From the NCBI RefSeq assembly GCF_024298765.1, contig NZ_CP101210.1: DNA of 64,000 nucleotides; one strand, 5' to 3'. A model generated the notes under the pieces. It had not been told where the DNA came from and did no database searches. It was given only the letters and a program-made list of their open reading frames with translations. Of the stretch, positions 19,558 to 26,208 are shown one piece after another. Numbering within the stretch: position 1 is the first letter of the stretch; each line of letters begins with the position of its first letter. The stretch is from Escherichia coli. GTDB taxonomy: Bacteria > Pseudomonadota > Gammaproteobacteria > Enterobacterales > Enterobacteriaceae. The position numbers and the translations under genes were made by a program.

Positions 19558-20217
19558 ATGAGCGAACAAATCACGTTTGCCACCAGCGATTTTGCCAGTA
19601 ACCCGGAACCACGTTGCCCCTGCATTTTGCTGCTGGATGTTTCTGGCTCGATGAGCGGCAGACCTATTAATGAACTTAACGCCGGATTGGTGACCTTTCG
19701 TGATGAACTGCTTGCCGATCCGCTGGCTTTAAAAAGAGTGGAACTCGGCATTGTGACGTTCGGCCCGGTGCATGTGGAACAACCCTTTACCAGCGCCGCT
19801 AACTTTTTCCCGCCCATCCTGTTTGCCCAGGGGGATACGCCAATGGGGGCCGCCATTACCAAAGCCCTGGATATGGTTGAAGAGAGGAAACGTGAGTACC
19901 GCGCAAATGGTATTTCGTATTATCGCCCGTGGATTTTCCTGATCACCGATGGCGCTCCAACCGATGAGTGGCAGGCTGCCGCCAACAAAGTGTTTCAGGG
20001 GGAAGAAGATAAGAAGTTTGCCTTCTTTTCCATCGGTGTTCAGGGGGCGGATATGAAGACGCTGGCACAAATCAGCGTTCGTCAGCCTTTGCCTCTGCAA
20101 GGATTACAATTCCGTGAACTGTTTAGCTGGTTATCCAGTTCGCTGCGTTCGGTTTCCCGCTCCACGCCGGGAACGGAAGTTGTGCTGGAAGCGCCAAAAG
20201 GCTGGACGTCAGTGTGA
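19558..20217 (+). CDS. yegL: von Willebrand factor A (vWA) domain protein YegL (TerY-like)
   Basis: 219 aa; MIDAS motif DVSGSMSG (DxSxS) and later ITDGAPTD. Confidence 0.85.
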
Positions 20218-20975
20218 GCTGGCGTCTGGTTTATGCATCCGCTGTTGGAACGTCGCACATTAGCGCTGATTTACCTTGTCAGGATGCCTGCCAGATGCAG
20301 GTTGCCTGGTTAAACGATCAGCAACCATTACTGGTGATGTTTCTTGCTGATGGTGCAGGCAGCGTCTCGCAGGGTGGCGAAGGCGCGATGCTCGCCGTCA
20401 ATGAAGCGATGGCTTATATGTCGCAAAAAGTGCAGGGTGGGGAATTGGGGCTTAATGATATCCTCGCCACGGATATTGTGCTGACTATTCGTCAGCGACT
20501 TTTTGCCGAGGCAGAGGCCAAAGAATTAGCGGTTCGCGATTTTGCCTGCACGTTTATGGGATTGATTTCATCGGCTAATGGCACCTTGATTATGCAGATT
20601 GGCGATGGCGGCGTGGTGGTAGATTTCGGTCATGGTCTGCAATTGCCGCTTACGCCGATGGTGGGTGAATATGCCAATATGACGCACTTCATTACCGATG
20701 AAGATGCCGTTTCCAGACTGGAAACTTTCACCAGCACTGAGCGTGTGCATAAAGTTGCAGCATTTACGGATGGTATCCAGCGACTGGCGTTAAATATGTT
20801 GGATAATTCTCCACATGTGCCTTTCTTTACCCCGTTTTTCAATGGACTGGCGTCAGCAACGCAGGAACAACTCGATTTATTACCTGAATTGTTAAAGCAG
20901 TTTTTGTCCAGCCCAGCGGTAAACGAGCGTACCGATGATGATAAAACGTTAGCACTGGCGCTGTGGGCAGAGTGA
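20214..20975 (+). CDS. yegK: PP2C-family Ser/Thr protein phosphatase (YegK/PphC)
   Basis: 253 aa; PP2C-like metal-binding motifs ([12 protein letters not shown]); start overlaps yegL stop (ATGA-type coupling). Confidence 0.8.
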
Positions 20976-21039
20976 GTTTCTCATGGCGGTTGAAGACAAC
21001 AATTCAACCGCCAGTTTAAACAATAAATATAACGGCTGA

Positions 21040-24844: not shown

Positions 24845-24855
24845 GCCATTTTCTT

Positions 24856-26208
24856 TTAACGAAACACCACTTCCGCCCAGCGTGCCAGCCCGGCGGTGAC
24901 GGAGCCAAAGTCATCGCCGCCTGCAATCGGAATTCCCGGCAACTGTTCTGCCAGCGCTTTTTTAATCAGCGGCGAACGGGCGCTACCGCCGGTCAGGTAG
25001 ATAACGTCCGGTTTTTCCTGGGCGTTATCCAGGGCCAGTTGCACCTGTTCCAGAATCCGCGCCAGTGGCTGGCTGAGGGCGCTTTCCAGCCCTTGCTGGC
25101 TAATCAGCGTAGCCAGTTCATCGCTGATAAACGGCAGTGAGGCGCGGGTTTCCGCTACGCTTGAAAGAGCAATTTTGCACTCTTCTGCGCTACGCACCAG
25201 GCGATAGCTTAAACGCTGACGCCAGACTTTCTGTAGCAGGGCCACTTTTTCCGGTTCGCGGGCATCGCGTACCAGATCGTTAAGCAGACGACCGTTGGCA
25301 CTACTGTAGAAATCACTCTGCGCAGGTACGTCGTTGATGGCAACCGCATTCCACCACGGCAGAATCGGCAGGGCGATGCCTTTTTCGGTTTCGCCACCCA
25401 TGCCCAGTAACGGCATCAGGTTTTTAAACGCCAGTGCGATGTCCAGATCGTTACCGCCAATACGGCAACCACTGTGACCCAGCAGGCTGGCTTCACGATC
25501 GAGACGCGAACGCCACTGCGGTCCCATCAGCAGCAATGAACAGTCAGTCGTACCACCGCCGATATCCACCACCAGCACCCGTTTTTCTTCCTGCAAGGTG
25601 GCTTCGTAATCCAGCCCAGCCGCGACCGGCTCGTACTGGAATACCACGTCCCTGAATCCGGCACGCTTCGCCGCGCGTTCCAGAATCCCTTGCGCCTGGG
25701 CGTTTGCTTCATCGCCGCCCAGCCCCTGGAAGTTGATCGGGCGACCAATCACCGCCTGAGTAATCGCTTCTGGCAGCTGCGCCTGCGCCTGCTGGCGAAT
25801 GTGCAACATCATTGCGCAGACCAGATCCTCAAACAGCGCTACCTGCTGCGGTTTTAAGCCGCTGGCACCGAGGAACGATTTTGGTGATTTCACAAACCAC
25901 ACTTCTTCTGGATCATCAATGTACTGTGCCAGTGAGGAAAGACCGAACTGCACGCTTTTCGCCGTAACATCGATATCTTCTTCGCGGTTATAACGAATCG
26001 CCCGACGTAACAGCGCCTGCGTTTCATCGTCGTCTGCCGGAACATCATGATGGCGGTACAGCCATTCACTTACTGCTTCACGCGTTGGCGCGCAAAGCAT
26101 TGAAGGCAGCAGCGTGCTGTCGTTTTCCATTTTCAGTAATTGCGGTTTACCGTCACGCATGACCGCCACTGAACAGTTTGCTGTACCGTAATCAAAACCA
26201 ATAAACAC
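24856..26208 (-). CDS. yegD: Hsp70/actin-fold ATPase homologue YegD
   Basis: 450 aa; phosphate-1 (IGFDYGTANCSV) and phosphate-2 (VVDIGGGTTDCSLL) motifs. Confidence 0.85.
   Translation of the reverse strand: MFIGFDYGTANCSVAVMRDGKPQLLKMENDSTLLPSMLCAPTREAVSEWLYRHHDVPADDDETQALLRRAIRYNREEDIDVTAKSVQFGLSSLAQYIDDPEEVWFVKSPKSFLGASGLKPQQVALFEDLVCAMMLHIRQQAQAQLPEAITQAVIGRPINFQGLGGDEANAQAQGILERAAKRAGFRDVVFQYEPVAAGLDYEATLQEEKRVLVVDIGGGTTDCSLLLMGPQWRSRLDREASLLGHSGCRIGGNDLDIALAFKNLMPLLGMGGETEKGIALPILPWWNAVAINDVPAQSDFYSSANGRLLNDLVRDAREPEKVALLQKVWRQRLSYRLVRSAEECKIALSSVAETRASLPFISDELATLISQQGLESALSQPLARILEQVQLALDNAQEKPDVIYLTGGSARSPLIKKALAEQLPGIPIAGGDDFGSVTAGLARWAEVVFR

Follow-up and report, generated by a model that had tools for sequence, protein, structure and literature searches.

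TerY-P systems combine a von Willebrand factor A (vWA) protein resembling TerY, a phosphatase of the PP2C type and a Ser/Thr kinase with a fused zinc ribbon, and their triads were first proposed to act as metal-sensing phospho-switches (PMC11090510). In the stand-alone TerY-P that has been validated against phages, an oligonucleotide/oligosaccharide-binding (OB) fold replaces the ribbon, and linkage to tellurite-resistance (ter) genes is seemingly not obligatory for the triad (PMC11090510). The present analysis examines a stretch of 64,000 nucleotides from Escherichia coli (RefSeq assembly GCF_024298765.1, contig NZ_CP101210.1; hereafter the window) that carries yegL, pphC (also named yegK) and yegI, which encode a vWA protein, a PP2C phosphatase and a membrane-anchored kinase. 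An original prediction, made from the sequence alone, had likened these genes to TerY-P and had stated, correctly, that TerY-P is listed among the experimentally validated anti-phage systems (PMC11090510, PMC7699616, 10.1101/2022.08.12.503731); the concepts of Anantharaman, Iyer & Aravind 2012 and Gao et al. 2020 are taken here via PMC11090510, PMC7699616 and PMC4978471. As judged from its protein families, the yeg triad is almost certainly homologous to the ter-type TerY-P triad. Its genes and their enzymology were already known, and the unit they form is a distinct variant, set apart by its placement with the ter-linked type, its distance from the validated system, its strict composition of three genes and a kinase that combines a zinc ribbon, a transmembrane (TM) hairpin and a helix-hairpin-helix (HhH) domain.

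The original prediction had placed a vWA gene with a complete metal ion-dependent adhesion site (MIDAS), a PP2C gene and a membrane-anchored kinase gene side by side, and all three are present as full-length open reading frames (ORFs) that keep every catalytic and MIDAS residue (Table 1). The translational coupling proposed for the first two genes was likewise borne out by the GTG start of pphC, which lies in a 4-nt GTGA overlap with the yegL stop. The ter-linked form is represented here by the Klebsiella quasipneumoniae plasmid p2012C06-006-1 (NZ_CP131698.1, 194.5-200.9 kb), on which TerY1, TerX, TerY2, TerY-C, a PP2C and a kinase are encoded in a row; in a tblastn search, TerY genes were found on 2331 plasmids. 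Specifically, the hidden Markov model (HMM) of the YegL family matches TerY1, TerY2 and TerY-C over nearly its own full length (4e-32, 1e-28 and 5e-28, respectively), that of the PphC family matches the plasmid PP2C at 2e-24 over HMM positions 4-188, and that of the YegI family matches the plasmid kinase at 1.2e-15, in an alignment that runs through the Cys/His ribbon. In a profile alignment, the ribbon of YegI furthermore lines up with the C..C...CPYC ribbon of the plasmid kinase. On the strength of these profile matches and of the kinase alignment through the ribbon, the yeg triad groups with the original ter-linked TerY-P; to the validated one it is only distantly related.

The two loci thereby share three homologous proteins, their gene order, an intact MIDAS and a Cys/His ribbon directly after the kinase, but they differ in several respects. 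The ter genes (terZABCDE, TerD/TerX) are absent from the window; TerY-C carries a metal-binding extension that YegL lacks; the PP2C of the ter locus comprises 588 aa, whereas PphC has 253 aa and no long N-terminal region; and the ter kinase ends in a soluble domain of ~110 aa, whereas in YegI a membrane hairpin, a coiled coil and the HhH domain follow. Linkage to Ter-associated genes was absent from the window and, among the loci examined, was seen only on a plasmid of Deinococcus sp. KNUC1210 (L071, 8980-17191), where a yeg-type triad adjoins genes for a StiP cysteine protease, a phosphoribosyltransferase and an HpcH/citrate lyase. These three genes are ones that we take to be companions of ter loci, and the plasmid is a physical link of the yeg-type triad to Ter biology.

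The relation to the validated system is much looser. Its reference, a cloned homologue from E. coli G3/10 (H4P47_RS00305-00315), was identified through the supplementary data of 10.1101/2022.08.27.505566 together with its RefSeq record, and as a positive control its proteins score 572.5, 358 and 878 bits on the TerY, PP2C and STK_OB models of the defence-system finder PADLOC. On the same models, YegL gives a partial match to TerY (PDLC02224; E = 0.013, 13.1 bits), PphC gives none to PP2C (PDLC02222) even at E<=10, and YegI gives none to STK_OB (PDLC02223), nor does its AlphaFold (AF2) model show an OB fold. Direct BLASTP comparison with the G3/10 proteins returned E values of 0.006 for YegL, 1.2 for PphC and 0.015 for YegI, and hhalign comparison of the yeg family alignments with the same proteins returned 1.8e-6 for the vWA proteins, 0.49 for the phosphatases and 9e-6 for the kinases. 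With PADLOC, BLASTP and hhalign failing or marginal while the control scored high, membership in the validated TerY-P was rejected. The TerY-P resemblance that had been predicted therefore holds for the triad architecture, the TerY-type vWA protein and the homology to the ter triad, but does not extend to membership in the validated family.

What the validated system and the yeg triad do have in common is the operon order of vWA, PP2C and Ser/Thr kinase, vWA and kinase cores that are remotely similar, and a kinase fused to a presumed nucleic-acid-binding module. This module is an OB fold in the validated system, whose kinase is without a membrane anchor, as opposed to the zinc ribbon, TM hairpin and HhH domain of the yeg kinase. 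The two also differ in distribution: only 4 of 5426 E. coli genomes carry the validated TerY-P, which in G3/10 sits in a defence island, whereas nearly all of them have the yeg triad. The G3/10 genes (L068, 7001-10260) lie directly upstream of a type I restriction-modification (RM) system, and NCBI names their products 'TerY-P anti-phage system ...'. When the NCBIfam HMM library was run on the G3/10 proteins, the vWA protein and the phosphatase had no match and the kinase had weak generic kinase matches only; given this near-silence, the NCBI naming must rest on another rule.

The new survey indicates that the three genes travel together. Scanning the YegI alignment against one genome per species yielded 62 loci from Alpha-, Beta- and Gammaproteobacteria, Acidobacteria, Actinobacteria, Cyanobacteria, Planctomycetes, Chloroflexi, Verrucomicrobia, Nitrospira, Myxococcota and Armatimonadetes, that is, from at least 10 phyla. 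At 55 of the 58 assessable loci, homologues of YegL and PphC are encoded directly next to the kinase, all three genes sharing strand and order, so that co-conservation, on which the idea of a functional triad depends, was found across all this breadth. Among the remaining loci, four lie on contigs that end too near the kinase to be judged, two triads are interrupted by insertions and one distant kinase is solitary. When the flanks of ~60 loci were clustered all against all, no fourth gene recurred that could serve as a conserved effector. The single exception is confined to one subclade of Burkholderiales, in which a staphylococcal nuclease-like gene (SNase; PF00565) lies directly upstream of the vWA gene in L002, L011, L018, L034, L075 and L080, and an ORF of 69-70 aa (69 aa in the clustering) in L002, L034, L074, L075 and L080; the upstream genes occupy positions 7719-8474 in L002, 7700-8501 in L075 and 7691-8473 in L080. 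These genes may represent an accessory or effector specific to the clade.

Plasmid copies of the cassette were found in Alpha-, Beta- and Gammaproteobacteria, Deinococcus and cyanobacteria, with YegL identities of 50-73%. The flanks differ every time, and some copies have Tn7-like transposition genes or a relaxase gene close by. Together the three genes form a unit that is self-contained, mobile and widely transferred. Carriage by phages was considered and rejected, as the searches yielded a single IMG/VR fragment of host-like character and, in unannotated phage records, three weak vWA matches. Within E. coli, the triad is present in 5407 of the 5426 complete genomes that make up the prevalence set, as a single copy at a fixed locus. 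The ratio of nonsynonymous to synonymous divergence (dN/dS) within Escherichia is 0.02-0.04 for yegL, 0.13 for pphC and 0.145 for yegI, a sign of purifying selection from which it follows that all three genes are maintained for some function.

At the level of single proteins, the MIDAS of YegL (D27-x-S29-x-S31, T94 and D131) is complete and invariant in the 39 homologues of family alignment A3, which has a mean column identity of 59%. The family furthermore shares an invariant N-terminal N-P-E-x-R before the first strand, surrounded by near-invariant P and C residues, and a conserved C-terminal motif, F..F..WLS.SL.SVS.S, that is recognisable also in the TerY-C of the ter plasmid. In the window, the N-terminal motif spans residues 15-22 (19600-19623) and the C-terminal motif residues 185-202 (20110-20163), and the Ser-rich tail within the latter (residues 193-202) is a candidate substrate of the kinase. 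In PphC, the metal-binding residues D24, D46, D131, D186 and D242/D243 are intact and the catalytic Asp residues are invariant in the family; the protein is an active Mn-dependent PP2C phosphatase that removes phosphate from YegI (10.1101/303594). Comparison of the window genes with L001, L077, L006 and L025 revealed unequal divergence within Escherichia: at the nucleotide level, pphC is 93, 93, 91 and 81% identical to its counterparts in K-12, B, E. whittamii and E69, and yegL 96, 96, 95 and 94.5%. Synonymous divergence of yegL and pphC (0.16-0.26) is 2-4x that of yegD and alkA, with dN/dS still low. Such divergence suggests that pphC has old alleles or has recombined.

The largest protein of the triad, YegI, was already established as an active, staurosporine-sensitive Ser kinase of the inner membrane that becomes active when its activation loop is autophosphorylated in a second-order (dimer-like) manner, a step that is reversed by PphC (10.1101/819920, 10.1101/303594). 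Autophosphorylation of YegI and mutants in its K39 and D141 (REL606 numbering) have been published, and PhoA-LacZ mapping placed two TM passes in the protein with both termini in the cytoplasm (10.1101/819920), in agreement with the hairpin of the AF2 model. YegI itself has no Pfam kinase match and some canonical Hanks residues are missing. The kinase-like nature that had been predicted for it is nonetheless supported by profile and structure comparisons, as 21 of 41 family members match Pkinase and as the AF2 model (pLDDT, for predicted local distance difference test: 89.4) retrieves PknB and PknA in Foldseek with E ~1e-7. The P-loop G22-G27, K41, D143, D161/D163 and the activation-loop S164 can be assigned, of which K41, D143, D161/D163 and S164 are invariant. 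Behind the kinase domain, C309, H315, C324 and C327 are invariant among 41 sequences and H320 in an 18-sequence alignment; this module, which is modelled as two short strands and one helix, is a predicted zinc ribbon. A disordered linker follows the ribbon, and the remainder of the protein comprises the TM hairpin, a long coiled coil, the HhH domain and a 60-residue terminal helix (585-646) before the gene ends at 24844. Sequence searches with YegL and YegI against the PDB gave no match.

The HhH domain is the part of YegI that could connect the switch to nucleic acids. Pfam HHH_5 matches the window protein at 0.0025 and, at a consistent position, 17 of 41 family members at E<=0.1; both NCBI and JGI name the family HhH-containing; and a model of the domain alone (pLDDT 92.8) has as its top Foldseek matches exclusively HhH DNA-binding domains, namely the N-terminal domains of Rad51/Dmc1/RadA, DisA, RuvA, ComEA and the RNAP alpha-CTD, all at a non-significant E>=0.2. 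Each of these signals is weak; taken together, they make DNA binding by this putative domain likely. Two further observations concern the length of the kinase. In Planctomycetes (L055-L061, L063), matches to kinase homologues span 2.2-2.8 kb compared with 1.9 kb in E. coli, which implies an extra inserted or appended region of several hundred residues relative to YegI. In the protein database, several large clusters of YegI are cut to 400-575 aa, which may reflect contig ends.

Other kinase systems resemble the yeg triad in single features. The pairs PknB-PstP, PrkC-PrpC and Stk1-Stp1 share with it the Hanks fold, to which PknB and PknA come closest, and an activation-loop autophosphorylation that is undone by an adjacent PP2C. 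Unlike these kinases, YegI has no PASTA or other extracytoplasmic sensor domain and both of its ends are cytoplasmic, with just a short periplasmic loop between the TM helices according to topology mapping and the AF2 model. The yeg kinase, furthermore, has an obligatory vWA partner, and its cassette is mobile rather than a regulator of cell wall or division. The only PADLOC models that YegI matches are PD-T4-6 and the kinase region of Mokosh MkoA (E 1.5e-4 to 4e-3), and these matches cover ~100 residues of the catalytic core. Both are single-gene kinase defences without a vWA or PP2C partner, and as the STK_OB kinase gives equally weak matches to them, the similarity reflects shared kinase ancestry only.

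The available data are best accommodated by a model in which yegL-pphC-yegI is the Escherichia-resident copy of a mobile phosphorylation switch of the TerY-P kind, with a putative defence mechanism included, an overall reading that we hold to be somewhat better than an even bet. Its two parts deserve different degrees of belief: that the genes form a kinase/phosphatase switch is probable, and that this switch has a dedicated function in defence is plausible yet falls a little short of even. In such a model, PphC would keep the YegI kinase off, and YegL would act as a sensor, an adaptor or a phospho-substrate by means of its MIDAS and its conserved Ser-rich tail. The coiled coil and the HhH domain would allow membrane-tethered YegI to dimerise on DNA near the membrane, for example on incoming foreign DNA, and this DNA-promoted dimerisation would activate the kinase. 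Active YegI could then phosphorylate proteins of the host or the invader to stop replication or growth, an abortive or arrest-type response to phages or mobile elements. As no separate effector gene is conserved, the kinase itself must be the output. The gene order and the presumed nucleic-acid-binding fusion of the kinase, both shared with the validated TerY-P, count in favour of this model.

If this model is true, nearly all E. coli, K-12 and B included, carry an immune module that is not listed as such, and PADLOC misses a whole family that extends over >10 phyla and many plasmids. YegI would furthermore constitute a membrane-anchored DNA sensor, a mechanism that is undescribed for kinase-based defences, and the poorly understood TerY of tellurite-resistance loci would be tied to a testable switch with a purified and characterised kinase and phosphatase. 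A bolder version can be put forward only tentatively: the triad may be an unrecognised second 'type' of TerY-P that is silent in almost every E. coli, in which the HhH domain of the membrane-tethered kinase would sense DNA of foreign origin at the inner membrane and the threshold of the trigger would be set by vWA protein and PP2C.

The genomic neighbourhood of the orthologues lends a role in defence some of its plausibility, as they often, though not always, lie in apparent defence islands or mobile elements. Defence genes were found within 10 kb (<=10 kb) in 6 of 11 Pfam-annotated contexts outside Escherichia, namely BrxR with JetB and ScoMcrA; AbiH with a KAP NTPase; GmrSD with a type I RM system; type I RM with Mrr; dCTP deaminase with E1/E2/JAB; and JetCD with GmrSD and PIN-TPR. 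At 20 further diverse loci, a small sample without a formal background, 5 of the 40 nearest long ORFs match PADLOC models at E<1e-10 (HsdR, HamB of Hachiman, a C5-methyltransferase, a Cas4-like nuclease and a ZorB/MotB-like protein). Three further observations can be counted for a conflict role: endogenous DNA damage rises when YegL or YegI is overproduced (10.1101/354589), purifying selection acts on the triad within Escherichia, and recurrent mutations and pseudogenes of yegI suggest a cost. The E. coli locus is different. The defence-island setting that had been predicted for it is often true of orthologous cassettes but not of this one, as the surrounding mdtABC, sib/ibs, yegD, alkA and dgcE are atypical for such an island.

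Several observations weigh against a defence function. In E. coli the triad is near-core and sits at a fixed, non-island locus, which is unusual for a defence system; at 15 of the 20 diverse loci sampled, the nearest ORFs include no PADLOC match; and some contexts are plainly housekeeping (L073). PADLOC does not recognise the yeg triad as a system, candidate systems included, and the literature searched holds no phage phenotype for yegL, pphC or yegI. The triad genes are reported as unexpressed in laboratory conditions, the HhH assignment is statistically weak at the Pfam and Foldseek values given above, and the role ascribed to YegL is one that we infer. In addition, the link to ter genes, including the Deinococcus copy, suits a function in chemical stress equally well.

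This last point leads to the strongest competing explanation, in which the triad is a Ter-type general stress switch that senses metals, xenobiotics, envelope stress or DNA damage and adjusts host physiology through reversible phosphorylation on Ser/Thr, without a dedicated role against phages. We regard it as unlikely, albeit well worth keeping in mind, since all three parts are homologous to a triad within ter loci, TerY-P was originally proposed as a metal-sensing phospho-switch (PMC11090510), the Deinococcus plasmid copy stands beside StiP, phosphoribosyltransferase and HpcH genes, and the triad is near-universal and vertically kept in E. coli beside alkA and mdtABC-baeSR. Overproduction of YegL or YegI, moreover, increases endogenous DNA damage (10.1101/354589), and the housekeeping character of some contexts points the same way. 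A mobile unit with changing flanks and frequent defence-gene neighbours is, however, not what a general stress switch would lead one to expect; neither ter genes in the window nor a recurrent neighbour in the flanks of the ~60 loci accompany it, and the triad is silent in stress-free, standard laboratory conditions. Should the stress switch alone prove true, it would still give a physiological context to two Ser/Thr signalling enzymes, of which E. coli has few.

Less likely again, and specific to this strain, is that the triad represents a decoupled and largely silent remnant, in which the ORFs are intact and yet do not work as a unit. B-type strains have an ATGA overlap between pphC and yegI, and in the K-12 lineage an insertion carrying yegJ replaced that junction; between the window and strain B, similarity ends at pphC nt 753 and restarts at yegI nt 57. 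An IS5 element has in addition inserted upstream of both genes, 35 bp from the ATG of yegJ and 167 bp from that of yegI, with its transposase gene directed toward yegI. This insertion is unique to the window, being found in 0 of the 5426 complete E. coli genomes, the best matches among which cover 87% of the query and are without it. Lying 35 bp from the start of yegJ, IS5 probably cut this gene off from its promoter. Under the favoured model, too, the yegJ and IS5 insertions uncouple yegI from the still-coupled yegL-pphC in the window, with coordinated expression probably altered, be it lost or rewired.

Further features fit a remnant: no expression of the triad genes has been detected in K-12 according to the literature, and 2 of 5 Escherichia species representatives have a broken yegI, L007 (8653-10617) through an in-frame stop and L008 (4482-6447) through a frameshift. 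Mutations in yegI, as a literature report describes, also recur in long-term evolution lines, and together with the pseudogenes they suggest that yegI carries a cost. Against a remnant stand the three full-length ORFs with every catalytic residue and a dN/dS of 0.02-0.15 even between K-12-type and B-type alleles. A sigma-70-like site is left between IS5 and yegI; it is non-significant, and a promoter and terminator scan of the locus performed no better than on shuffled sequence. IS5 insertions can switch neighbouring genes on as well as off.

The weakest explanation, a functional unit of five genes (yegL-yegK-yegJ-yegI-yegD) in which the kinase/phosphatase pair has the Hsp70-like YegD and the secreted YegJ as its partners or substrates, is highly improbable and largely refuted by missing co-conservation: the genes adjoin in K-12-like strains, yegJ overexpression raises yegD mRNA and YegJ binds RNase E (PMC13232886), but a YegD homologue stands beside the triad solely in the four Escherichia loci (L006-L008, L025) of the 62, a YegJ homologue at 0 of these 62 species-representative loci, yegJ is missing from strain B and most E. 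coli lineages, and no partner recurs in the flanks. The original prediction was thus right about the adjacency of the two interleaved genes, which are nevertheless not components, YegD being a neighbour only in Escherichia and YegJ only in the K-12-like lineage. YegD and YegJ should not be read as partners of the triad even if the latter is a stress switch.

Table 1 Features of the yeg locus and of YegI in the window
Feature	Position	Strand	Basis and remarks
yegL	19558-20217	+	219 aa; ORF call; Pfam VWA 1.6e-9; triad gene 1
pphC (yegK)	20214-20975	+	253 aa; ORF call; PP2C_2 3.2e-50; triad gene 2
yegI	22898-24844	+	648 aa; ORF call; membrane-anchored Hanks-type kinase
YegI kinase domain, residues 1-304	22898-23809	+	invariant columns; AF2 pLDDT >90
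YegI zinc-ribbon-like module, residues 305-335	23810-23902	+	C309, H315, H320, C324-P-W-C327
YegI two-pass TM hairpin, residues ~391-436	24068-24205	+	AF2 helices 391-410 and 415 onward
YegI (HhH)2-like putative DNA-binding domain, residues ~517-575	24446-24622	+	weak Pfam, Foldseek and model signals
yegD	24856-26208	-	Hsp70-like ATPase; NF008673, 810 bits
yegJ	21040-21501	-	DUF2314 in K-12 annotation; signal peptide
K-12-lineage insertion carrying yegJ	20967-21535	-	comparison with strain B
IS5	21536-22730	+	1195 bp; transposase 21604-22584; terminal repeats and TTAG target duplication read in the sequence
IS150	17801-19243	+	orfA 17848-18369, orfB 18366-19217; CCC target duplication
Sib antitoxin RNA copy 1	17488-17630	-	Rfam RF00113, 142 bits; ibs toxin ORF 17503-17559 on +
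Sib antitoxin RNA copy 2	19263-19411	-	Rfam RF00113, 149.5 bits; ibs toxin ORF 19278-19337 on +

The window presents the E. coli yeg locus in the reverse of its K-12 order, from mdtA through two sib/ibs repeats, IS150, yegL, pphC, yegJ, IS5, yegI and yegD to alkA and dgcE. YegD also matches the PADLOC model PDC-M61B, a match that was disregarded, as it covers 27 residues of the ATPase motif. Of the mobile elements that had been predicted around the cluster, IS5 does split it, but the description of a cluster bracketed by IS150 was overstated, as IS150 flanks one side only. The predicted type I toxin-antitoxin repeats do adjoin the cluster, in the form of two Sib RNAs with ibs ORFs upstream of yegL that were identified with Rfam. 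IS150 has inserted in the second of these sib/ibs repeats, with 20 nt between the element and the 3' end of that repeat's Sib RNA; as it lies between the ibs leader and its ORF, this toxin copy is probably silenced while the antitoxin RNA is intact. The same IS150 insertion is common to 62 of the 5426 E. coli genomes.

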